Assembly (NCBI GenBank): GCA_965214705.1
Contig: CBDCCI010000002.1
Location: 2,048,001 to 2,112,000, forward strand
Source of the DNA: Alphaproteobacteria bacterium
GTDB lineage: Bacteria; Pseudomonadota; Alphaproteobacteria; UBA828
DNA length: 64,000 nucleotides
Direction: 5' to 3'
Shown here: positions 15,056-26,936 of the stretch, piece by piece
Layout: each line of letters opens with the position of its first letter
Numbering within the stretch: position 1 is the first letter of the stretch
Notes under the pieces: model-generated
What the model was told of the DNA's origin: nothing
Seen by the model: only the letters and a program-made list of their open reading frames with translations
The model's database searches: none
Position numbers and translations under genes: made by a program

Positions 15056-15366
15056 GCCCTTCGGGTCGTGCCCGGGCGCCCGCCCGCGTCGTCGCGGGCC
15101 TCAACCGTATTCCCTGATACGCTTTTCGGTCCGCTCCTGGCGGATCGAACGCCTGGGCGCGACGCAGGCCGTGACCCTGATGAGAAACAACAGTCAATCG
15201 TGTTCCACCCTATTCCCATGAGATTTCTGGAGTTCCTCGATTCTGTCTAATACAATGACATGGAGGAGATTTTAGCACTCCGTGGACCTGGTGAGCACTC
15301 CTGGAATACACTTCGCGTGTTGTGGAAGGTGTTGATTTTGAGGACAAGCCATGTCATCATGCCTCC

Positions 15367-16638
15367 ATGAGACACTCACCCGGGAAACGCGTCGCACGCG
15401 TCAAGATCACCATCGCAAAGCGCGCCATCGACAGCCTGAAGCCCGACGATAAACCTTGGATCGCATGGGACGACAAGCTGACCGGCTTTGGCGTCCAGGT
15501 CCACCCCTCGGGCATCAAGTCTTACATCGTCAACTACCGCCTCGGTGAAGGAGGCAGGGCGGCGCCCAACAAACGCCTTGTCATCGGACGGTGCGACAGG
15601 ATGGCCCCCGAGCAGGCCCGCCGCGAGGCACACAGGCTGCTCGGCATGGTCGCCGTCGGCGAGGACCCCGCTGCCGAACGCGCCAAGGGCCGCCGCATGC
15701 CGCCGCTCGGGAAGGCCTTCGAGCAGTACATGAAGGCCAACCCCAAGCGCAAGGACAGCACCAACGCGTCCTACCGCGACCGCTTCGAGCGGCCTCTCGG
15801 TGACTGGCTTGGCCGATCGCTGGACACCATCAGCCGCAGCGACGTGGAGGAGCGCTTCAACCGCATCACCGAGCAGCACGGCTGGGCGGTCGCCAACCAG
15901 TGCATGTCTCTGCTGCGCTCGGTCTATCGTCGGCCCTGCGTGGACTTTCGAGGGCTGGATAATCCTGTTGATCTCTGGCTCGCAGGCGGCGGCAAGTTCC
16001 ATCCCAAGCCGCGCCGCAAGATCCCGCCGCCGGCGGAGGTCCTGCCGCGCTGGCGGAAGGGCATCGAGGCGGTGGTGAGCAACCCCGCCCTTCGGGATGT
16101 GTTCTGGTTCGGAATGTACACGGGCATGCGGCTTGGCGAGGTGCTGCCGCTGCGGTGGGAGCGTGTGAACAGGGAGGCAATGGTCTTCCGCGTGGAGGAG
16201 ACAAAGACGGGCGCGCCGCTGGAGTTGCCCATCACGCGGCAGTTGGCGGCCATTCTCGACCGGCGGTGGGCCGAGAGCGGGAGTTTGCCGGACGGCTGGG
16301 TGTTTCCGTCGGCCACCAGCCGCACGGGCTACTTCGTGAAGCTGACCTATTTTCACCGCCGCATCAGCGATGCCGGTGGCGCGAAGTTCTGGTTCCACGG
16401 CTTGCGCAACTGCTTCATCACGGTGGCAGAGCGAGAGTTGATGCTGCCGCACGCGCTGACCAAGCGGCTGGTGAACCACGCGCCGCCCAACGACGTGACC
16501 GAGGGGTATGCCGCCGCCTGGACGATCGGACAGTTGCGCGAGCCGGCTCAACGCATCGCGGATCGCATCGAGGACTTGATGGGAGAAGAACCCGACCACC
16601 TCAGCGGGGGAACAGCGGCGATGGCCGTCACTACCTGA
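15367..16638 (+). CDS. Tyrosine integrase with N-terminal arm-binding domain
   Basis: WDDKLTGFGV, YTGMRLGE, HGLRN, LVNH...VTEGY. Confidence 0.9.
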   Translation: MRHSPGKRVARVKITIAKRAIDSLKPDDKPWIAWDDKLTGFGVQVHPSGIKSYIVNYRLGEGGRAAPNKRLVIGRCDRMAPEQARREAHRLLGMVAVGEDPAAERAKGRRMPPLGKAFEQYMKANPKRKDSTNASYRDRFERPLGDWLGRSLDTISRSDVEERFNRITEQHGWAVANQCMSLLRSVYRRPCVDFRGLDNPVDLWLAGGGKFHPKPRRKIPPPAEVLPRWRKGIEAVVSNPALRDVFWFGMYTGMRLGEVLPLRWERVNREAMVFRVEETKTGAPLELPITRQLAAILDRRWAESGSLPDGWVFPSATSRTGYFVKLTYFHRRISDAGGAKFWFHGLRNCFITVAERELMLPHALTKRLVNHAPPNDVTEGYAAAWTIGQLREPAQRIADRIEDLMGEEPDHLSGGTAAMAVTT

Positions 16639-16830
16639 AGGTTGTAGGTTCAAGTCCTGATCCGCTAATCGCCGAGACCGATATTTTCGGCGAGGGGTGT
16701 GTCGGTTTCGTTATCCCTGCCGGTCCCCGCCGTCCACCGGATGATTGTACCCAGTTCGCCATGAAGCGTCGTGTTCAGCCGGCCCCATAACAGGCCAGGA
16801 GTGAGCACGATTCGCTCGACTGGTTCCTCC
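16628..16830. other. Degenerate tRNA-fMet 3' fragment (att relic, 16628-16670) plus C-terminal relic of a serine recombinase on the minus strand
   Basis: CCTGAAGGTTGTAGGTTCAAGTCC resembles the initiator tRNA variable/T arm; minus frame has RIVLTPG...TLHGELGTI. Confidence 0.5.
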
Positions 16831-17035
16831 TGTCGCCGGCATCCGTAGCGACCTAGGCATGGAACCACTTCGTGATCGCGCTTTCTGGTTGCAGATTCAG
16901 CCAGCGCCAAGCCATCTGGGTCATGTGCTTCATAAAGCGCAAGAGGCCGCAGGCCGGCCTTGCTGATGGCGAGATCGTGATCGATATCTCCGCTCGCCCA
17001 AGGTACCGACGTCAACCCGGCCCAGCTGTATAACG

Positions 17036-17085
17036 CGTAGCGCGTCGATCTGGATGAGAGCCCGCATCCAGATCGACGCGCTACG
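17036..17085. terminator. Perfect 21-bp hairpin abutting the terminal CRISPR repeat
   Basis: CGTAGCGCGTCGATCTGGATG-N8-CATCCAGATCGACGCGCTACG; terminator role is inferred. Confidence 0.45.
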
Positions 17086-18128
17086 GGCTATCCCCGCGCG
17101 AGCGGGGGAACCTGACCGGCCTGATAGTCGCCCCGGTCAAACTGGGGGCTATCCCCGCGCGGGCGGGGGAACTACGGAGGGTTGGTGATGCAACAGTGCA
17201 CGCTGTTGTCCGGCAGCGTCCGCAACTGCTCGCGAGCATCGCCGACGAGGATTTTGGCAGCCACCAGCGCGTCATCCGCTCGATGCAGAGGGCGAGCATC
17301 TGGTCGTAGATGTGCTGGCGCACGCCGACGGCCACGTCGGGAATGATCGCCTCCACGCCGCCGCCGATGCCGACATCACGCTGGGCGATAAAGCCCTCAA
17401 CCAACTCGTGCACCGGGTCGATATCGTCCCTAAGCGCACTATGAAGGAAGACGAGTTGCGTCTCCTGATGCTCAAGCTCGTCAATCCACAGCGGCTTGTC
17501 GGCCGCGATCAGGCAGGGATTGATGACCTCGGCGTCGATCTCGGCCTCGTGCGGCCCGGCAAGGGCGAGACGCACGCTCGCCATCCCCAGCAACAGGATC
17601 AGCAGCGCGACGACGCACGCCTGCGCCCAGCCAGCCGGCCTGGTCAGTCCTGCGATCATGTCGCCTCCTATTTCGGCACGACCAGCGTACACCCTCCGCC
17701 GGCGTCGCGCTTGGTTGCGTGCGTGATCAGGTAGGGGCTATCCCCGCGCGGGCGGGGGAGCCACCCGCCGGTCTCGGCCCCGGAGCCCGTGCCAGGGGCT
17801 ATCCCCGCGCGGGCGGGGGAGCCGAATCCGAGCAGGTAGGTGAGAGACACCCAGCGGGGCTATCCCCGCGCGGGCGGGGGAGCCCCGGCGGAGAGTACCG
17901 TGCAGCCGGTTATCGGGGGGCTATCCCCGCGCGGGCGGGGGAGCCGTCGTTGCGTTCCATGTCTGAGTCCCTTCATTGGGGCTATCCCCGCGCGGGCGGG
18001 GGAGCCGAGCGGCGCCGGCCTTGCCCGTTCGATGGCCCGGGGCTATCCCCGCGCGGGCGGGGGAGCCTTGAGCCGTACCTCACCCGTCCAGACCGGCCCG
18101 GGGCTATCCCCGCGCGGGCGGGGGAGCC
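17084..18128 (-). CRISPR. Orphan type I-E-like CRISPR array: 9 repeats of 29 nt, seven 32-nt spacers and one 560-nt insert
   Basis: GGGGCTATCCCCGCGCGGGCGGGGGAGCC at 17084, 17145, 17734, 17795, 17856, 17917, 17978, 18039, 18100; left two repeats degenerate; no cas genes in the window; orientation inferred from I-E repeat polarity. Confidence 0.95.
17174..17659 (-). CDS. Hypothetical signal-peptide ORF inside the oversized spacer, overlapped by a truncated DNA methyltransferase start (17264-17174)
   Basis: GGAGG RBS before ATG 17659, hydrophobic N-terminus; alternative frame VAAKILVGDAREQLRTLPDNSVHCCITNPP. Confidence 0.55.
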
Positions 18129-18420
18129 CAAGCCGGCCAAGGCATCACCTCGAACGTCCAGTTCGTGCCGACCTCGCAGCTCGCGGTCTACCGGCCGGAG
18201 CACCGGCTGGAGGACACGATCCTGGGCGAATACACCCAGGCGGGCGGCTTCGACGCCGCCGTCGGATAGGGCAGTAGCCCATGGGAACTCTGCGGGACCT
18301 CGCCGACGCGGCGATGGTCGTCGAAAATGCGGTGGAGGGAGTGGGCGATATCTCCCTCCGCTTCCCCACCTCCGTTCAGCGCCGCGATCTGCTGGCCCGC
18401 CTGAAGCGGGTCAAGCTCAA

Positions 18421-19572
18421 CCCAAGTTGGCAGTGCGCCGTGGAAAGGCGCTCTCTTTCAGCGGGTGCGAATCCCGCCCAACAACTGTCGCTCCGGTTGG
18501 TAGCAGCCAGGGCGGTTCATGGAGGTGACGACATGGGCTGAAGCACCTTGGTGGAAAAGGGCCACCGTTGGGTGGCTCAGCGACCGTGCGGGCCGGAACG
18601 TGAGTGAACGCTGAGCAGGCCTCGAAACGGGTAATGCGAGTGTCGACCCTCCTGCCAAAAGGGGAAGACCGTCGCCGATCGGGAAGAGAGCGACATGCGC
18701 ACCGATCGCGGCTCGCCGGGGTAGTGGCGCCGGCACGCACGGAAGAGGAAGAGAGCAGCAACACGGGAAGCCCTGACGGTGGTGCGCGCACATCAACCGG
18801 AAGCCCGCGAGGGACAGGCCGGGCCGTCAGGGTGGCGGAGAGGCCCGTAAGACTGAGGACGCCGGGTAATGCCGGCCGAGGAAAGGGGCCTCAGGTGTGG
18901 AGGGGTGCCTTGAAGGGAGAAGGGCCAGGGAGTGGCTAAGCCTGTAACCCCGAGAATGGCCGGAGATCCCGGCGGCATCACATGCAAATGGAAGCGAAGG
19001 GGCCGCCCGGAGCAAATCTGCGCGGTACCGCCGGGGCATCGACAGGCCCGGCGGTCAAGGCGGACGACGAATGGACCGCGATGGTTGAGGGGATGCGCAC
19101 CCTTGCGACCGGATCGGAGGTTCCGATCACGTGCGCCATCGTCGCGAGCTTTGCCTGTGTGCGAGATGCATGATCCCACTGGAGAGCTCGGTGCTCGAAA
19201 TGGGCACGCCGGGTTCGGAGAGCGGGGACCGGAAACGCGGCCAAGGGAGCCGGATTGAGGCCCGCAGCGAAAGCGGCGGAATTGCCACCGGACCCTACAG
19301 CAGGCGCGCCAGTCCTCGACTCTACCTTTTTCCGACCGGCCGAGCCTGATCGAGCCGGTTTTGCGGCGCTGAATCACTAGATGTTGGGGTTGGAAGACCC
19401 CTGACCCCCACATTTGCGATCTGTGGTCCTGGAGGTCGATTGTGGGGCCAGGACTTTGGGGTTGAGTCGATATCCCTCTTGCCAGACGCCGCGCCCGCCG
19501 TGTATGCGAAACAGGCATCGCAGAAACGGCGCCGCCATGTACATCAAGGCAACCAGGACGCACACCGACAAG
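18421..19572 (+). mobile_element. 5' remnant of an IS1634-like IS (type B) with an intron in its IR
   Basis: CCCAAGTTGGCA^CTTTTTCCGACC equals the end at 31625-31648; encodes MYIKATRTHTDK, then homology ends. Confidence 0.85.
18433..19325 (+). ncRNA. ORF-less group II intron (893 nt)
   Basis: 5' GTGCG, domain V GAGCTCGGTGCTCGAAATGGGCACGCCGGGTTC, 3' CTCTAC; EBS1 TGCCAA (18653-58) pairs with exon TTGGCA. Confidence 0.85.
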
Positions 19573-19693: not shown

Positions 19694-20815
19694 ATGGCAA
19701 CGCTTCGTCTCCACCAAGGCCGCGTCGATGCGCTCAAGCCTCGTAAGTCTGCATACGACATCCGAGACCGGGAACTCAAGGGCTTCGGCGTCAGGGTTCT
19801 GCCCTCGGGCGCCAAGCGCTACTTCATCCATAGCCAGCACGATGGCCGGCGGGTCTGGAAGATGCTCGGCAAGGGCGAGGCCATCGGCGTGGACGAGGCC
19901 CGCGAACGGGCCCAGGCCATACTGGCCTCAATACGGGCTGGAAACGACGACGAGACTGCGGCGGTGCCTGACACCCCGTTCGAGACAGTCGCCGACGAAG
20001 TCTTCCGCCGCTACGCCCGGAACTGGAAGCCGTCGACGCTCAAGGTCAACCAGGGCTACTACCGCAAGCAGATACTGCCTTGGTTCGAGGGACGTCCGAT
20101 CACCGGCATCACCGCCCGCGACGTTCAGCAGTGGTTCGCATCTCTCCACGAGACCCCCGTAGCGGCGGACCGCTCGGCCCCCGTCCTGTCCGTCATCATG
20201 CACCAGGCCGAGGTCTACGGCTACCGGCCCGAGGGGACAAACCCTTGCGCCGGCATCAAGCGCTACCGGCGCCAGGGGCGCGAGCGCTTCCTGTCGACGG
20301 CCGAAGTCAGCCGGCTAGGCTCGGTGTTGGCGAGCCATGAGGCGGGCCACCCGCAGGCTGTGGCGATCATTCGGCTGCTGCTGCTCACCGGATGCCGCAA
20401 GGGCGAGATCATATCCTTGAAGTGGCGCTACTACCGCGAGGGCAAGCTCTTCCTCCCCGATAGCAAGGTCGGGCCGCGCACGGTCTGGCTCTCCTCCCCC
20501 GCGCGCGCCATCCTCGACGGCCTGCCTCGCACTGCCGTCTGGGTCTTCCCCTCGCCAAGGAACGGCCTCCTGCATGCAGCGTCGGTTGGCAGCGTCTGGC
20601 ATCGTGTAAGGGAAGAAGCTGACCTGCACGATGTCCGCCTTCACGATCTCCGACATACGCATGCCAGCATGGCCCTGGCGCAGGGCGAGACGGTGCTGAC
20701 CATCGGCCGGCTTCTCGGACACCGCAATCCGGCGACGACGCTGAAGTACATCCACCTGTCCGACGCCATGGTGCGCGAGGCGGTGGACGTTGTCGGCGCA
20801 GCCCTCGAGGGTTGA
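19694..20815 (+). CDS. Tyrosine integrase (arm-type)
   Basis: LTGCRKGE, HDLRHT, LLGH...TTLKY. Confidence 0.9.
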   Translation: MATLRLHQGRVDALKPRKSAYDIRDRELKGFGVRVLPSGAKRYFIHSQHDGRRVWKMLGKGEAIGVDEARERAQAILASIRAGNDDETAAVPDTPFETVADEVFRRYARNWKPSTLKVNQGYYRKQILPWFEGRPITGITARDVQQWFASLHETPVAADRSAPVLSVIMHQAEVYGYRPEGTNPCAGIKRYRRQGRERFLSTAEVSRLGSVLASHEAGHPQAVAIIRLLLLTGCRKGEIISLKWRYYREGKLFLPDSKVGPRTVWLSSPARAILDGLPRTAVWVFPSPRNGLLHAASVGSVWHRVREEADLHDVRLHDLRHTHASMALAQGETVLTIGRLLGHRNPATTLKYIHLSDAMVREAVDVVGAALEG

Positions 20816-21975
20816 TCCGTGGCCGTGAGGAGGAGGCGTCTGACTGACGCAAGTGTCGCGAAGCTGGTACCGGCGGCCCGCGAGTATACCGTTTGGGACA
20901 CGCGCCATGCGGGTCTCGGCATTCGGGTGCGGCCGTCGGGGCACCGGAGCTTCATATACTGGCGGAAGGGCGAGGACAGTGCGCGCAGGATCACGCTCGG
21001 GCCTGCGTCGTTGATGAAGATCGAGGAGGCGCGCAGCCAGTGCGTCTCCATCGAGAGCGGCGCACGATCCGGCCAGGCACGGCGCGACAAGGTGCCCACC
21101 TTCGAGGAATTTGTCGCGGGTCCGGGGCGGACGTGTTTCGAGCGGGGCAAGCCGTCGACGCGGAAAGTCTTTGCCAGGGTCGTCTCCGTGCGACTGCTGC
21201 CCGCCTTCGGCTCGTTGCCGCTGGACCGGATCACCCGCGCCGACGTGACCCGCTGGTTCGACGAATGCAGCCGGACCACGCCGGGCGCGGCCAACAAGGC
21301 GTTGAACCTGCTCAGCCGGGTTCTCAATCATGCGATCGTCTGCGGCCATATCCAGGCGAACCCCGCGCGTGGCATCCAGTGGAACCCCGGTGCCAAGCTC
21401 ACCCGCTTCTTGTCGCGCGAGGAAGTCCGCCGACTTCATCACGCCCTGGATCGCCACAATCACGCGCGACCGTCGCGCGCGCGACAGGCGGACGTCATCC
21501 GTCTTCTCTTGCTCACCGGCTGCCGGAAGAGCGAAATCCTGACTCTGCGCTGGCAGGACGGGGACGGGGACACGCTTAATCTAATCGATGCGAAGACTGG
21601 ACCGAGGCGGGTCTTTCTGAATGCGCCGGCCCGCGCCATCCTTGAGAGGCAGCCGCGCTCGGGGAGCACCTACGTCTTCCCTGCGCCGTCGAATCCCGGT
21701 CGACCGCTTTCGCATCACCTGCCCCTCTGGCGTTCGGTACGCAGGGAAGCCGGGATCGAAGACGTGCGCATCCACGACCTCAGACACACGCACGCCAGCC
21801 ACGCCGTTCTGCAAGGCGTCCCGCTTCCGGTGATCTTTCGTTCATTGTGCCACTCCATTGCAGGTCATTGTAATTGCGAGACTTTTGTGTTCGGACTTGC
21901 CGCGACACGGAGATTTTCCCGTCCGGGGAGCCCGAGAATGCCGATGCTGTGCGTAGCCGCATGATCGGCGTTTCC

Positions 21976-24033
21976 CTAACTCGCTGTAAACATTGAGAGC
22001 TGCCCGTCTTCAGCGGCGCGACACGGACGCCTGCGGCGCTGGCACGCCTCAAGCACCTTCGGGTCTTCGATAGCCGCCGCACGGATCCGCCACGGCGCCT
22101 GTGGCACCGCCTGTTCGGCGGCCAGAACGCCGTCCTTGATCAGGCGGCGGATCACGTGGCTGGTCACGCCGAGCTTCGCGGCGGCCTGTGACATCGTCAG
22201 CCAAGCCTCCTGCATCTTGTCGGAGCGCGCGCCGCGAATGCGGTGATGAATCCGAACATTCTTGACAATGGATCCGGTCCAGGTGTTACCCATGCCGCTC
22301 CGCATCCCCATGCGATTGAGCGTGGCGGCGATCTCGGCGTCCGACCACGGCCCGGCCATGCTGCGGATCACCTTGAGCGCATCTTCGGGCGTGCGACGGA
22401 AAGTTCCGCCGCGTGCCTGTTTGCGAACGCGAAGCTGTGAGTGTCGGCCACCCCGCCAGCGGATCACCAGAACCACCTCGCGTGCGGCTTCATCCACGTC
22501 GGCGACGATGTCCTCGATGACGCCGCGCAGCAGTTGCTGGCGGGCGCGCATCGTGGTCCCCGGCGCCTCCCACGCGGCTTCGAGATCGTCGGCGAGGGAG
22601 GTGAAGTCGGGAACCTCGCCGCAGCCCTCCGGCGGCTCGCTCAGGCGCGCCTCGAACGCCGCCACACGCTGCAGCGCGGCCTCCCAGGTCTTTTCCAACT
22701 GCGCCGCAATCAAGCGATTGTCGGGATCGCAGGCCGCGTAGCGGCGTTCCGCCAGTGACGCATCGTAGCGGGCTTGCTCCAACTCCAATTCCATCAGCCG
22801 CCGGCCTTCGCTGCGCTCCTCCATACGCCTCCTCTCTGCCTCAAGGGCTGCCTCGACCGCGAGCGGCGACACCGCCCGAAGGACCTCGCCGACAACCGCC
22901 TTCTCGACACGGCGCCCGCCGAAGCTCAGACAACGCTTGTGGCCCTCGTTCTGCCGACTGCGGCAGCCATAGTAGGGTGCAGGCGTCCTGCTGCCGTAGG
23001 ACACCACCAAGCGGTTCCCGCAGCGCGCGCAGGTCAGCAGCCCTGCCAGCAAGGCCGACCCACCGCGCCCCGACTTGACGCCGTCACTGCGTGCGTAGTT
23101 GTTGGCCCGAAGCTGCTCGCGGTTTCGCTTGAACTCCTTCCAGTCGATGAAGCTCGGGTGATGATCTTCAATCACGACTTCCCAGTCTTCAAGCGGTTTG
23201 GCGCAGCCATAGATCTTCCGCAGGCGGCCGTCGACCACGGTCGTGCGCGTGCCGCTCTTGCCGTAGACGTAGGTCCCGGCATAGAACGGGTTCGTCAAGG
23301 TCGACAGGACGTTGTAGTAGCGGATCGGGCGCCAGTCGAAGCCCGTCCCGCCACGCTTGTCGGACGGCTTCGGGAAGTGGAACCTGTCTTCCTTCATCGA
23401 GAGCAGCACTTGGCGTGCGCTGCCGAGTCGGCGGAAGCGCTCGAAAATCTCCCGGATCGTCGCCTGAAGCCGCTCGTCCGGATCGAGGGCGAGCCCGGTC
23501 TCGCGGTCCCAGATGTAGCCCGGCGGCACTGGTATGCGCAGCTCGCCGCGCCGCGCCTTGCCGCGCGCCGCCTCGGACATGCGGGCGCGCAGCTGGCTGA
23601 GCTCGAAGGTCGAGATGCTGCCCTTCATCCCCAGCAGAAGCCTGTCATTGGGCAGGTTCGGGTCGTAGACCCCATCGAGATCGATGATCCGTCCGCCGAC
23701 GAAGCCGCAGACCTCGAGGAGATGCTCCCAGTCCCGGCCGTTGCGCGCCAGCCTGGTGGCATCGAGGCAAAGCACGGCACCGACCATGTTCTCGTACATC
23801 AATGCCAGCAGCCGCTCGAAGCCCGGCCGCTCTGCCATGCCGCTGGCCGTGCGGCCGAGGTCGTCGTCGATCGCCTCGACATCGCGGAACCCGTGATGGC
23901 GGGCGGCTTCGACGAGTTCATACTGACGCCGCCGGCTTTCAGGGTTGTTGATTATCTGCCCGGGCTTGGACTGGCGGATGTAAACGACCGCCTTGCGCTT
24001 CAACAGCACGGCCGGGAGATCAGCGCTCCTCAT
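21976..24033 (-). CDS. Large serine recombinase (resolvase + recombinase + Zn ribbon + HTH)
   Basis: AVVYIRQS, RLARN, NPFYAGTY, CARCG. Confidence 0.9.
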   Translation of the reverse strand: MRSADLPAVLLKRKAVVYIRQSKPGQIINNPESRRRQYELVEAARHHGFRDVEAIDDDLGRTASGMAERPGFERLLALMYENMVGAVLCLDATRLARNGRDWEHLLEVCGFVGGRIIDLDGVYDPNLPNDRLLLGMKGSISTFELSQLRARMSEAARGKARRGELRIPVPPGYIWDRETGLALDPDERLQATIREIFERFRRLGSARQVLLSMKEDRFHFPKPSDKRGGTGFDWRPIRYYNVLSTLTNPFYAGTYVYGKSGTRTTVVDGRLRKIYGCAKPLEDWEVVIEDHHPSFIDWKEFKRNREQLRANNYARSDGVKSGRGGSALLAGLLTCARCGNRLVVSYGSRTPAPYYGCRSRQNEGHKRCLSFGGRRVEKAVVGEVLRAVSPLAVEAALEAERRRMEERSEGRRLMELELEQARYDASLAERRYAACDPDNRLIAAQLEKTWEAALQRVAAFEARLSEPPEGCGEVPDFTSLADDLEAAWEAPGTTMRARQQLLRGVIEDIVADVDEAAREVVLVIRWRGGRHSQLRVRKQARGGTFRRTPEDALKVIRSMAGPWSDAEIAATLNRMGMRSGMGNTWTGSIVKNVRIHHRIRGARSDKMQEAWLTMSQAAAKLGVTSHVIRRLIKDGVLAAEQAVPQAPWRIRAAAIEDPKVLEACQRRRRPCRAAEDGQLSMFTAS

Positions 24034-24849: not shown

Positions 24850-26936
24850 CAGGACCATTTCTTAGTCCGGGCTGAGACCACGAGATGAGGAAGAGCGCGT
24901 CCGGTGGAGGGGATTTGGGGCATTCCCGAGCTCGGCTCGGCCGATTCAATGGACGCTGTCGAAGCTGCCGAACGGCGTTCTCGGGCTCTTCGGGCGTGAT
25001 TATCCGGCGTCGGCAGCGGACGCGCCGCGACCCACGTGCTTCTGTGGTGGCGCCTGCGGGATCAGGCGCCGGGCGTGCTCAGGATGACGGCGAGGGCGTC
25101 CTGCGCGCGGGCGGCATAGTGGCGGTTGGCCTCGGGCAGATAGCGGAAGCGGCCGTCGCTGCGCACGATGGCGATGGCCGCGTTGGTCAGGCAGGCGAGA
25201 TTGCGGGGCATGTGGCGCACGTACGCCCGGCAGCGGTCTTCGTCGTAGGTGAAGTCGCGCACGTAGTGCAGCCTGTTTTCGATGTGCCAGTGGTTGCGGA
25301 CCAGGGTCAGCAGCTCCTCGGGCCCGGCGCGGTCTGCGCTGAGCGAGGTGAGGCTGTAGGCCACCTCGATGCTGCGCTTGCCGGTCTTGAGGATCTCGCG
25401 CTCGCGTTCGATGCGCACCGCCTGGCGGCGACCATGGAGATTGGCGTAGCCGTCCCACTCGGCGCCGGAGAGGTCGACGACGGCACAGCGTCGGCGCTCG
25501 ATGCGGCCATGTCCCTTGTCGACGGTTTCGTGCCAGGGCGCGTCGCTGAAGTCGATCGCCTTGAGGTCTTCGAGGATGGTCTCCTGATTGTCCTTGATGG
25601 CGCTGACCACATAGTCGGCGCGGCGTCCGAGCAGGCAGCGCGCGGTTTCCTGCTGGGCGTGCATCGCGTCCATGGTGACGATGCGCTCGGTCAGGTCGAG
25701 GCTGCTGGAGAGCTCGCGCACGGCCGGGATTTCGTTGCTCTTGCTGTCGACCTCGACCTGTCCGAGGACCAGACCGCTGTCGTGCTCCACCGCCGCGACC
25801 ATCATCCGGCGTCCGTTCTCGGTCTGCGCAGACGCGCCGCGCAGGTCCTTTCCGTCCAAGGCGATCGGCGCATGCGAGGTGCTTTGCTGGGCGGTCCACT
25901 GGCCGATGGCATTGTCCAGGGTCTCGGGAGGCAGGGCTGCGAGGATTTTGTGGAAGGTGGTGATCGAAGGCGCGGTATAGCACTTCCTGGAAGGGCTCCA
26001 GAACGCGCCCACCGCCTCGAGCTGGTCCTGGCTGAGCAGGGCGGCGAACTGGGCGAACGCGGTCACGCCGCGATAGCCGGCAAGCCGGGCCGCGACGGCG
26101 AGCGCGAGCACGGTGCTCAAGGGGTAGCGCTTGCCCCGCGCGAAGCGGCACTCGGGTACCTCGCCCAGGCACTCGAACAGACTGCGCAGCCCAGGCGCGG
26201 CCATCGGCTCGGTGTGTTGCTCAGCGTTCCAGTGCGCCGGCATCTCGGTCCGGCTCAGCGCCTCGGCGGCGCCTTCGCTCAGTTCGAACACGAAGACCTC
26301 CTTGGGCTGGCCGTGGTGGCGCCAGCGCGGCGCAGCCCCGGGGTCGCGGGCAAAGCCGCGCGTCATCCCCAGCGAGCGCCAGTTCGACGCGCGGTAGCAG
26401 GTGCCGGCGAACCTCGAAGGGTCCACGAAAGTCTCGGCCAGGAGCACCGGGTAGCCGTGCACCGCCTGCATGTCCGCAGACAGCCGTCTCAGGCTCAGCC
26501 CCAGCACCCGCGAGGCCAGGTTGGGCACCCGGTGCGGCGTCAGGATGACGAAACGCGAGTTGTTGGCGATCAGATGCAGGCGCCGGAACTGCTGCTCCGT
26601 CGACCAACCGATCCAGCCGTCGCGCGCGGCCAGCTTGAACGCGCCCGGCTGCCAGCCGATCAGAGCAACCCAGCTCTCGCCGTGTACCGCGACATGGCGC
26701 AGGCCTTTGCCGATGACGCCGTGAAACGCCAGGTAGTGATGCTCCGACACCAGCCGGTCCCAGCGCCGGTGTTCCCGCGCGCCCCAGGTCGGACGCACCG
26801 TGACCGCGCGCAGATCAATGGACCAATCCTCGACCAGCAGCGGCGCCATCAACGGCACACTGCCACGCCGAGAACGAAATGACCAGCCCGGAGTTCAGAT
26901 CACGACGCCCGCGGGGCGAACAAAAAACTAGCCCTG
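24850..26936 (-). mobile_element. ISAs1-family IS (copy 2) inserted in the IS630 left IR
   Basis: CAGG.../...CCCTG ends, 10-bp TSD CCTAGTGTTG. Confidence 0.85.
25062..26858 (-). CDS. In-frame DUF4338(DruA-like)-ISAs1 transposase fusion, 598 aa
   Basis: HHYL, LAETFVD..RFAGTCYRASNW; ALDGKDLRG, KSNEIP, MDAMHAQ, RNHWHIEN. Confidence 0.88.
   Translation of the reverse strand: MPLMAPLLVEDWSIDLRAVTVRPTWGAREHRRWDRLVSEHHYLAFHGVIGKGLRHVAVHGESWVALIGWQPGAFKLAARDGWIGWSTEQQFRRLHLIANNSRFVILTPHRVPNLASRVLGLSLRRLSADMQAVHGYPVLLAETFVDPSRFAGTCYRASNWRSLGMTRGFARDPGAAPRWRHHGQPKEVFVFELSEGAAEALSRTEMPAHWNAEQHTEPMAAPGLRSLFECLGEVPECRFARGKRYPLSTVLALAVAARLAGYRGVTAFAQFAALLSQDQLEAVGAFWSPSRKCYTAPSITTFHKILAALPPETLDNAIGQWTAQQSTSHAPIALDGKDLRGASAQTENGRRMMVAAVEHDSGLVLGQVEVDSKSNEIPAVRELSSSLDLTERIVTMDAMHAQQETARCLLGRRADYVVSAIKDNQETILEDLKAIDFSDAPWHETVDKGHGRIERRRCAVVDLSGAEWDGYANLHGRRQAVRIEREREILKTGKRSIEVAYSLTSLSADRAGPEELLTLVRNHWHIENRLHYVRDFTYDEDRCRAYVRHMPRNLACLTNAAIAIVRSDGRFRYLPEANRHYAARAQDALAVILSTPGA

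Follow-up and report, generated by a model that had tools for sequence, protein, structure and literature searches.

A gene-sized over-long 'spacer' in an orphan type I-E CRISPR array, more likely a recombination scar than a working gene cassette

The orphan array and its surroundings

The window analysed here (a whole stretch of 64,000 nucleotides from an alphaproteobacterial genome) holds an orphan CRISPR array of nine 29-nt type I-E repeats, R1 to R9, that were located with a repeat finder and a script of our own and are given in + strand coordinates. The array lies ~650 kb from the cas operon. Seven of its nine repeats are identical to 29 of the 30 repeats of a second array adjacent to the cas genes, which identifies them as type I-E; its sense, assigned from this cas-adjacent array and its leader (conserved in a sister species), runs along the minus strand. 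The features of the locus are as follows.

15322-16638, plus strand: tyrosine integrase, trailer side (Pfam PF00589, PF13356)
16812-17028, minus strand: terminal fragment of an IS110-like element (genome self-matches)
17035-17085, no strand assigned: near-perfect hairpin with a stem of ~21-22 bp and an 8-nt loop (palindromic self-match)
17084-17112, minus strand: R1, terminal and degenerate, with three differences from the consensus
17113-17144, minus strand: spacer 1 (S1), 32 nt
17145-17173, minus strand: R2, a variant repeat, off consensus at sense positions 1 and 3
17174-17733, minus strand: insert in spacer position, 560 nt
17174-17659, minus strand: secreted-looking ORF (GGAGG at 17668-17664, ATG at 17659)
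17175-17264, minus strand: PF01555-type DNA methyltransferase, first 30 codons (GTG at 17264), cut inside the (S/N)PPY motif
17671-17733, minus strand: tail of an upstream ORF, last 21 codons, with stop TAG at 17670-17668 and cut at the R3 border; GC3 0.81
17734-17762, minus strand: R3, consensus
17734-18128, minus strand: R3 to R9 with six 32-nt spacers, all seven repeats consensus
18129-18269, plus strand: tail of an unannotated ORF, last 46 codons and stop; GC3 0.91
18281-18419, plus strand: small ORF, first 46 codons, interrupted by the next element
18420-19330, plus strand: group II intron copy lacking an ORF (Rfam RF02003, RF00029)
19694-21964, plus strand: tyrosine integrases, two in tandem, on the opposite side of the array (Pfam)
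21976-24033, minus strand: serine recombinase following the tandem integrases (Pfam)

R4 to R9 follow in 61-nt steps, the last occupying 18100-18128. Seven of the eight intervals between repeats are 32 nt long, the exact length of all 35 spacers of both arrays other than the insert, and the interval between R2 and R3 (17174-17733) is 560 nt, confirming the observation with which an earlier, sequence-only reading of the locus had begun. The repeats on the two sides of this long interval are not of one kind. When variants were counted among the genome's 39 repeats, the T at position 3 of R2 was found in common only with R1, the R1-R2 variant being absent from the remaining 37; 2 of 29 positions separate R2 from R3, and later mutation is possible. 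This switch of repeat variant at the insert suggests that the distal module R2-S1-R1 either descends from another array than R3-R9 does, or dates from a far earlier stage in the growth of one and the same array. Spacer 1 was without match elsewhere in the genome by genome search. The hairpins of R2 and R3 are both intact, and the larger hairpin at 17035-17085 adjoins R1 on the trailer side, its right arm overlapping the first 2 nt of that repeat.

At the opposite end of the array no leader is present beyond R9: the sequence there has no similarity to the leader conserved in a sister species, and in the leader's place the ORF tail at 18129-18269 begins exactly at the leader-side border of R9, a joint carried by contigs spanning 18100/18101-18445 in the short-read runs X1, X2 and X5. 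A promoter-like site for the window array was looked for, and none was found. Around the array lie three tyrosine integrases, a serine recombinase, elements of IS4/IS5, IS66, IS91 and IS110 type, and group II introns. Over its 911 nt the intron at 18420-19330 matches a second copy, next to the cas-adjacent array, at 100% identity; for the IS110-like fragment 23 other matches are listed, mostly at ~85% identity, of which 17 cover the full 217 nt.

The 560-nt insert

The junctions of the insert are not an assembly error. Short-read contigs with zero differences cover 16856-17761 (X1), 17052-17761 (X2), 17071-17348 (X4) and 17642-17761 (X5). Those of X1 and X2 begin in unique flanking sequence, cross R1, S1 and R2 together with the full insert and reach into R3, whilst that of X4 covers R1-S1-R2 into the insert and that of X5, from another study, the joint between insert and R3. 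The R2-insert joint is therefore covered in three runs and the insert-R3 joint likewise in three, with four runs from two studies overall, among which X1 is possibly the source sample. The contigs end inside the consensus R3, and the spacers beyond it are shown only by the three-contig assembly, in which the insert is single-copy.

Three reading frames in the insert run along the sense strand of the array, bearing out the co-orientation proposed in the sequence-only reading. Together they form one colinear piece (the end of an ORF, a ribosome-binding site, an ORF and the start of a methyltransferase) whose two ends both lie mid-gene and flush with repeat borders, and GC content by codon position supports coding in the named frames up to both borders. 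The minus-strand GGAGG-ATG start of the central ORF, already described in that reading, can be read directly; the N-terminus that follows (one Arg, ~16 hydrophobic residues, A-L-A) is signal-peptide-like as judged by eye. The ORF has no native stop and continues via R2-S1-R1 to a stop at 17081-17083, appearing as a protein of 192 aa in a public gene set. Its only relative found is a 159-aa ORF at the trailer junction of the cas-adjacent array (35% identity), which terminates 12 residues past the last motif common to both proteins. The AlphaFold model of the secreted-looking ORF has a mean pLDDT of 44. Pfam searches gave no match for any ORF of the insert, the 30-aa methyltransferase fragment included, or for the flank ORFs, and PHROGs gave none better than E=0.15 for the secreted-looking and flank ORFs.

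The GTG at 17264 (minus strand) starts the frame VAAKILVGDAREQLRTLPDNSVHCCITNPP; at 21 of 30 positions it agrees with residues 1-30 of P0003, a PF01555 protein of 381 aa in which the Y of SPPY comes next. The fragment also matches phrog_67 (E=8.6e-7) and phrog_6025 (E=6e-5), and 15 of 400 further genomes in the class have long open frames whose N-terminal ends it matches, so that its earlier recognition as the N-terminus of a DNA methyltransferase is upheld. Relative to PF01555, the N-terminal region up to (D/S/N)PPY is present and the complete catalytic and SAM-binding domain is absent: the frame stops after PP at the repeat, and a matching remainder was sought across the genome and not found. 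The cut lies at the repeat border or 1 nt inside it. The TAG that ends the frame is made up of T17174 from the insert and A17173 and G17172 from R2; the first base of R2 is A, not G, and could derive from the Tyr codon of the methyltransferase, which would place the joint 1 nt within the repeat. The frame is thus cut at the repeat, as had been claimed, with the exactness of that cut in doubt by one nucleotide.

The insert has a GC content of 64.6%, compared with 66.8% for the genome. Comparison of its ends revealed neither terminal inverted repeats nor direct repeats indicative of target duplication, and Pfam no transposase, confirming that the features by which an IS element or transposon would be recognised are absent. 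With no transposon ends, and the rest of the methyltransferase nowhere in the genome, the locus is not an interrupted resident gene. Nor does the insert resemble an ordinary spacer, differing in its length (560 versus 32 nt) and in that the flanking repeats are not copies of each other. It is a contiguous piece of foreign coding DNA, i.e. an operon fragment, at spacer position, and to this extent the sequence-only reading was correct. The further description of this DNA as phage-like holds in part, in that the methyltransferase resembles phage and cellular enzymes alike, but the secreted-looking ORF is without phage relative.

Two checks akin to those put forward with that reading gave no support: blastn of the 560 nt against a phage collection returned no match, and comparison of 16 sister-species spacers with the insert and captured flanks gave nothing above shuffle background. 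Among 60 relatives the insert produced only chance-level matches of 23-61 nt, in 7 of the 60. For the secreted-looking ORF, tblastn against phages and plasmids found no match, no related loci were detected in genome, viral or metagenome contigs, a word-based search of 5.8 billion proteins returned the self-match only, and a two-row profile built with the paralogue had 0 matches among 43 genomes from the family; with the 14-residue peptide LPDNSVHCCITNPP written as a degenerate pattern, three contig collections gave 0 matches, and the neighbourhoods of 11 related methyltransferase loci contained no relative of this ORF. Protospacers for both arrays, and with them a PAM, were sought in the phage collection and none was found, and a 20-nt pattern common to two spacers had no match in viral contigs. 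The genome's 35 spacers showed no convincing self-target in the rest of the genome, and their best match to the captured pieces (insert and flanks) was 22/32, equal to the best obtained after shuffling.

Origin of the insert

The cas-adjacent array adjoins cas3, cse2, cas7, cas6e, cas1 and cas2, so that the genome has the I-E adaptation module (cas1, cas2) in full; this array has 30 repeats, and all 28 of its regular spacers are 32 nt long. Truncated ORFs abut repeat borders exactly at two further array ends, i.e. the leader side of R9 and the trailer of the cas-adjacent array, where the last repeat (C3 1416558-1416586, perfect consensus) meets codon 65 of another ORF. At both of these junctions there is a repeat on one side only. 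We estimate roughly that a random breakpoint would coincide with a repeat border ~1 time in 20, and four exact junctions therefore call for a border-specific process; the four junction flanks share no common end motif, which argues against a site-specific element. The paralogues of 35% identity in the insert and beside the cas-adjacent trailer junction indicate that both pieces come from related elements, as would be expected of invaders that the arrays target.

Other arrangements of these junctions were considered and set aside. A single inversion through one spacer-protospacer pair is ruled out by the 32 nt at the two junctions, which differ. In the window and on C3 alike, the ORF half adjoins the 5' end of an intron copy; the two copies are identical and lie in direct orientation, and no single inversion by homologous recombination that would make the two flanks one split piece fits this intron orientation. 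Full-length relatives of the two halves were not found, the three matches in the class (E ~0.005 per genome) being at chance level, and an assignment of the flank ORFs to a phage tail module, which had drawn only on size, order and charge, was dropped. In the sister species G020, the trailer flank of the array consists of repeated elements.

The insert is most likely a dead fragment of a mobile element, a phage or similar, between two type I-E repeats, and is most likely inert today. For its arrival we tentatively propose recombination between array spacers and the matching protospacers of an invading element, a route that we regard as plausible while stopping short of calling it probable. The array would formerly have carried two ordinary spacers acquired from one element, ~0.5 kb apart, and homologous recombination between these spacers and their protospacers would have replaced the intervening array by the contiguous DNA of the element, through a double crossover or gene conversion and possibly via a phage-array hybrid molecule of the CRISPR-transducing kind. 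Recombination between a targeting spacer and a phage genome is described as enhancing transduction of the CRISPR locus (10.1101/2020.10.09.333658, citing Varble 2019). Since spacers by definition end where the repeats begin, such a route would cut the foreign genes exactly at the borders. Several points count against it: the source element was found in none of the collections searched; 32 bp is short for RecA-type recombination; a joint possibly 1 nt inside R2 is not predicted by simple spacer homology; the one-sided junctions at R9 and the cas-adjacent trailer need further rearrangements; and in no run were the joints those of an ancestral array with 32-nt spacers where the insert now stands, nor does any spacer match the captured pieces above shuffle background.

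Alternatively, Cas1-Cas2 may have integrated a long, untrimmed fragment as a 'giant spacer', its 3' ends attacking the borders of the repeat that was then leader-proximal; an untrimmed prespacer and a double crossover were the two origins put forward in the sequence-only reading. This would account for exact borders with a repeat on each side and for an insert that looks like a random internal fragment of foreign DNA, the necessary I-E cas1 and cas2 being present, and an imprecise second step of integration would be in keeping with a 1-nt slip at the border of R2. We nevertheless consider it unlikely. With ~33 bp from one active site to the other, the I-E Cas1-Cas2 complex would be ill suited to a substrate of 560 bp, and the 35 other spacers, all of exactly 32 nt, suggest that the integrase ruler is strict; R2 and R3, which a fresh Cas1-Cas2 duplication should have left identical, differ at two positions, with the variant switching exactly at the insert. 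Both the apparently strict ruler and the non-identical repeats favour the recombination route. The two junctions with a repeat on one side only also do not fit integration of this kind.

A similarly low probability attaches to ordinary mobile-element rearrangement, in which an element entered or landed beside array fragments through a site-specific recombinase, end joining or transposition, and subsequent deletions left the 560 nt between two array pieces that had been separate. The integrases, recombinase, IS elements and group II introns surrounding the array are consistent with such a history, as is the difference between repeats 1-2 and repeats 3-9, and precedents exist in phages for which a CRISPR repeat serves as the attachment site (10.1101/2020.10.09.333658), in Tn7-like elements targeting repeats (PMC11837452) and in the orphan I-E arrays reported within Pseudomonas aeruginosa prophages (PMC13142298). 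However, random deletions would not end flush at repeat borders four times, and the flanks are mid-gene cuts rather than element ends, with no end motif in common and with inverted repeats and target duplication absent. The IS insertion in the cas-adjacent array also looks unlike the insert, since it sits inside a spacer of which remnants persist on both sides.

A broader and decidedly improbable reading is that the CRISPR machinery of this lineage repeatedly sets kilobase-scale foreign DNA at repeat borders, whether by Cas1-Cas2 or by spacer-guided recombination. The flanks at 18129-18419 and C3 1416587-1417930 might then be the two parts of another 'giant spacer', ~1.6 kb long, by which both arrays were formerly connected before it was split, and the arrays might serve to capture DNA, with Cas6e releasing the inserts as mRNA-like RNAs.

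The sequence-only reading had gone on to suggest that the array serves as a gene-capture cassette; in its working form, Cas6e would release an RNA of ~590 nt from which the secreted protein is made. The secreted-looking ORF does run along the array sense strand with a GGAGG-ATG start, the R2 and R3 hairpins are intact, and the structure is unchanged in contigs of the four runs from two studies. Against these stand the lack of a leader or promoter-like site, an ORF deprived of its stop that extends into residues encoded by the repeats (whereas the paralogue ends 12 residues past the last common motif) and a methyltransferase reduced to a 30-codon stump, so that this proposal is unsupported and a working cassette appears very unlikely. 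Least credible is a wrong joining of the insert to array repeats, for which one might cite the short-read contigs that stop inside R3, leaving the consensus repeats unbridged, and the 8.7% 'contamination' given in the genome record, but which is at odds with the zero-difference contigs of X1, X2, X4 and X5 and with a single-copy insert in a three-contig assembly.

Significance and comparison with known systems

The arrays found in nature are generally taken as orderly records of 32-nt memories. In this genome, foreign genes meet repeats at exact borders in four places, one of them in the form of a gene-sized 'spacer' without transposon features, which is most likely to be better described as a recombination scar than as a working gene cassette. 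If these are true recombination scars, they would provide field evidence, in type I-E, for the process described for transduction of CRISPR systems, a process said to move DNA between invaders and arrays and to be able to import repeat-spacer units; if the integrase made the insert, then in nature its ruler can be off by a factor of more than ten. In practical terms, array-calling software will split or mis-annotate loci of this kind, and gene callers already output a chimeric protein of 192 aa that is in part a translation of repeats.

Long 'spacers' of at least 100 nt have been catalogued in arrays of E. coli, P. aeruginosa and S. thermophilus, most of them transposon-like (Kupczok et al. 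2015, PMC4524480). As in the window array, that catalogue concerns over-long intervals between the regular repeats of otherwise regular arrays; the mostly transposon-like sequences it describes differ from the present insert, which is flush with the repeats and has no transposon features.

In recombination of the type attributed to Varble 2019 (as summarised in 10.1101/2020.10.09.333658), homology between spacer and protospacer joins phage DNA to the array exactly at repeat borders. Spacer-protospacer recombination would explain both the flush mid-gene cuts and the import of foreign repeat-spacer units. The work of Varble et al. in 2019 was reportedly done in staphylococci, going by its title. 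The process as summarised concerns transduction of a whole CRISPR system, whereas the insert would be a scar fixed in the chromosome, within an array of type I-E, and the route to it is a proposed one. Phage phiAP1.1 of Streptococcus pyogenes, described in the same source (10.1101/2020.10.09.333658), likewise places foreign DNA between repeats, and errors in its excision move repeat-spacer units. There, however, an 8-bp attP identical to the repeat serves a whole prophage with its integrase; the 560 nt described here consist of mid-gene fragments, with neither whole prophage nor integrase and no att-like core.

A parallel in setting is found in the orphan arrays of P. aeruginosa, relocated by mobile elements (PMC13142298), which also lie far from cas, among mobile-element genes, and carry the same repeat as the cas-adjacent array. 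The isolated arrays that this source describes (type I-F) retain a leader nearly identical to the cas-adjacent one, whereas in the window array a truncated ORF has replaced the leader and a gene-sized insert occupies the position of a spacer.

The 560-nt interval of the window array

The window array of this 7.9-Mb genome (G000, assembled in three contigs, C1 to C3) comprises nine copies of a 29-nt repeat, GGGGCTATCCCCGCGCGGGCGGGGGAGCC in its plus-strand form. Seven of its eight intervals measure 32 nt whilst that between R2 and R3 spans 560 nt, confirming the one gene-sized interval of the sequence-only reading. Positions without a contig name are those of the window, which is C3 2048001-2112000.

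17084-17112: repeat R1
17145-17173: repeat R2
17174-17733: insert
17734-17762: repeat R3
up to 18100-18128: repeats R4-R9, in 61-nt steps
17733-17668, minus (sense): 21 codons and TAG, first after R3
overlapping that TAG, minus (sense): GGAGG
from ATG 17659, minus (sense): "secreted ORF", with one Arg, a hydrophobic run and A-L-A
from GTG 17264, minus (sense): methyltransferase start, 30 codons in a different frame, reading VAAKILVGDAREQLRTLPDNSVHCCITNPP

The insert is single-copy, with a GC content of 64.6% against 66.8% for the genome. Neither terminal inverted repeats nor flanking direct repeats were found at it, nor any Pfam family within it, in keeping with the earlier statement that it has no inverted repeats, target-site duplication or transposase. 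Codon-position GC agrees with the named frames up to both borders. The N-terminus of the secreted ORF is signal-peptide-like, as judged by eye; lacking its own stop, this frame continues across R2, the spacer between R1 and R2 (S1) and R1 to 17081, and the read-through product appears as a 192-aa protein in a public gene set.

That the 30-residue stump begins a DNA methyltransferase, as first proposed, was borne out: it is identical at 21 of 30 positions to the first 30 residues of a 381-aa PF01555 methyltransferase, in which the Y of SPPY comes next, and it also matches phrog_67 (E=8.6e-7) and phrog_6025. Among 400 other genomes of the class, 15 have open frames (131-747 aa, most >300 aa) with a matching N-terminus. 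The genome lacks the rest of the enzyme, none of its 10 PF01555 matches being the continuation; one N-terminally short match was rejected as the missing remainder, being a complete different enzyme. The stump's stop is formed by T17174 and the first two bases of R2. The cut therefore coincides with the repeat border, unless the unusual first base of R2, an A, is the middle base of the missing Tyr codon, in which case it falls 1 nt within the repeat. Only R1 and R2 have T at sense position 3, the genome's other 37 repeats lacking it, and R2 differs additionally at sense position 1; this switch of repeat variant coincides with the insert.

Junctions at array borders and their surroundings

A second array, built of 30 copies of the window array's repeat, lies on C3 as well, some 650 kb off and beside a complete type I-E cas operon (genes including cas3, cse2, cas7, cas6e, cas1 and cas2), and all 28 of its regular spacers are 32 nt. 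There the cas genes and the repeats share the plus strand with a short AT-rich leader that follows cas2, and we therefore take the minus strand as the sense of the window array, which makes R9 its leader-proximal and R1 its terminal repeat. One 2009-nt interval of the cas-adjacent array (G000:C3:1414061-1416069) is an ordinary IS of about 1975-1981 nt with a DDE-type transposase (DDE_Tnp_1) and four other genomic copies (three near-full, one a 1.5-kb partial); it sits inside one spacer, with remnants on both sides, and cuts the array into 21 and 9 repeats. The sister species G020 (locus L045, G020:C4:445001-453000) has a perfectly regular 17-repeat array, its repeat 1 nt different, and its leader/cas2 side is 94% identical over 1.9 kb; one of its spacers resembles a cas-adjacent spacer of G000. 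Spacer 17946-17977 and two cas-adjacent spacers of G000 (near C3 1413540-1413571 and 1412869-1412900) are versions of the same target, a ribosome-binding site and start codon on the sense strand, for which no protospacer was found in phage or viral collections. It seems that the arrays took spacers from related invaders repeatedly.

The final 46 codons of an unannotated ORF (18129-18269, GC3 0.91) abut R9; next comes a small ORF, cut short after 46 codons by a group II intron that itself lacks an ORF (Rfam RF02003 and RF00029). The cas-adjacent array likewise ends (G000:C3:1416558-1417930; locus L019 2658-4030) in a perfect repeat (C3 1416558-1416586), without a degenerate terminal repeat, to which the first 65 codons of another unannotated ORF are joined immediately, in antisense. 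Upstream of the latter are a 159-aa secreted-looking ORF and two small ORFs, followed by a second, 100% identical intron copy and then an IS. Apart from this 159-aa ORF (35% identity across the alignment; one Cys pair in common), no relative of the insert's secreted ORF was found. At four junctions in this genome, truncated ORFs that are otherwise absent from it thus meet a repeat exactly at the repeat border, and their number would require a border-specific process.

The window array, itself an orphan, lacks a leader, and no sigma-70-like site was found in 16900-18700. To its left lie an integrase and an IS110-like end fragment (16812-17028; 23 other matches, 17 of them the full 217 nt, mostly at about 85% identity), which stops by a strong hairpin (17035-17085, 21-22-bp stem) touching R1; such palindromes are frequent targets of IS110-family elements. 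To its right are two integrases and a serine recombinase and, further on, IS4/5, IS66 and IS91 transposases and a group II intron reverse transcriptase. In ORF 25062-26858 (minus) the N-terminal region resembles Druantia DruA (PF14236, E=5.8e-22), and the same ORF carries a DDE transposase domain. An IS91-type (Y2) transposase paired with a tyrosine recombinase (37073-39361, minus; the Pfam scan covered this first pair only) is matched about 6 kb off by an inverted ORF pair of identical lengths and codon composition (45103-47391, plus), the two flanking the reverse transcriptase (41602-43092) and a DDE transposase. Matches to the ORF-less intron are as follows.

Full copies: window 18420-19330; C3 1417931-1418841; C1 1330413-1331321
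Shorter, C3: 382840-383376; 604054-604468
Shorter, C1: 620547-620738; 287705-287964; 28069-28191
Shorter, C2: 673767-673885; 26834-26994

Two copies are identical over 911 nt and the third is 99.6% identical; a fixed ACCCAAGTTGGCA precedes GTGCG at their start, and similar sequence follows two of the three full copies, the IS coming next at the C3 copy.

Origin of the insert

Recombination between spacers and phage genomes reportedly enhances transduction of CRISPR systems, the work cited being Varble 2019. Of the two origins first proposed, an untrimmed prespacer and a double crossover, both remain candidates, and we tentatively favour recombination between spacers and their protospacers. Two spacers from the same invader, about 0.5 kb apart, would by double crossover yield a colinear insert, flush with the repeats by construction because the incoming ends are themselves spacers; identical flanking repeats would not be needed, and with a phage-array hybrid as partner, repeat-spacer units of a different array could be brought in. 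That the two captured ORFs are paralogues is consistent with repeated contact with a single invader family. Against this, no source element was found among phages, plasmids, relatives or genome, viral and metagenome contigs; no protospacer from which to define a PAM was found in phage/viral collections; no ancestral allele was seen among the runs' contigs; and none of the surviving spacers (35 of G000, 16 of G020) matched the captured DNA above background. In its account of the process, 10.1101/2020.10.09.333658 attributes such recombination to promiscuous phage recombinases.

Joining of a long fragment by Cas1-Cas2 agrees with the exact borders and the possible 1-nt slip, but we consider it unlikely: all 35 other spacers are exactly 32 nt, R2 differs from R3, and the one-sided junctions fit poorly. 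Other rearrangements are equally doubtful, since random breakage or deletion would land on a border about once in 20 per junction (our rough estimate), yet there are four such junctions. All four flanks are mid-gene, have no motif in common and show no ends, which makes a site-specific element unlikely.

An assembly artefact is highly improbable. Logan contigs with zero differences to the window come from runs X1 (16856-17761; possibly the source sample itself), X2 (17052-17761), X4 (17071-17348) and X5 (17642-17761; another study and organism label), so that three runs span the R2/insert joint and three the insert/R3 joint; k-mer contigs necessarily end within the consensus R3, and its link to the following spacers is that of the assembly alone.

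Present function and comparison with known cases

The suggestion of a gene-capture cassette was not supported, and a working one is very improbable: the insert, with a mere stump of a methyltransferase, a secreted ORF that runs on into residues encoded by the repeats, and no leader to the array, is probably inert today. If outside transcription crossed the array, the predicted Cas6e product would be an RNA of about 590 nt; the hairpins of R2 and R3 are both intact.

Long "spacers" are already catalogued and, as PMC4524480 outlines them, are mostly transposon-like, unlike the insert described here. Phage integration at repeats (as sketched in 10.1101/2020.10.09.333658) and repeat-targeting Tn7-like elements (as sketched in PMC11837452) leave whole elements, whereas this insert is a flush mid-gene fragment. 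For Pseudomonas aeruginosa, PMC13142298 describes orphan arrays of type I-E located in prophages. The present case pairs a gene-sized insert of non-transposon type, standing in the place of a spacer, with sister junctions in the same genome.
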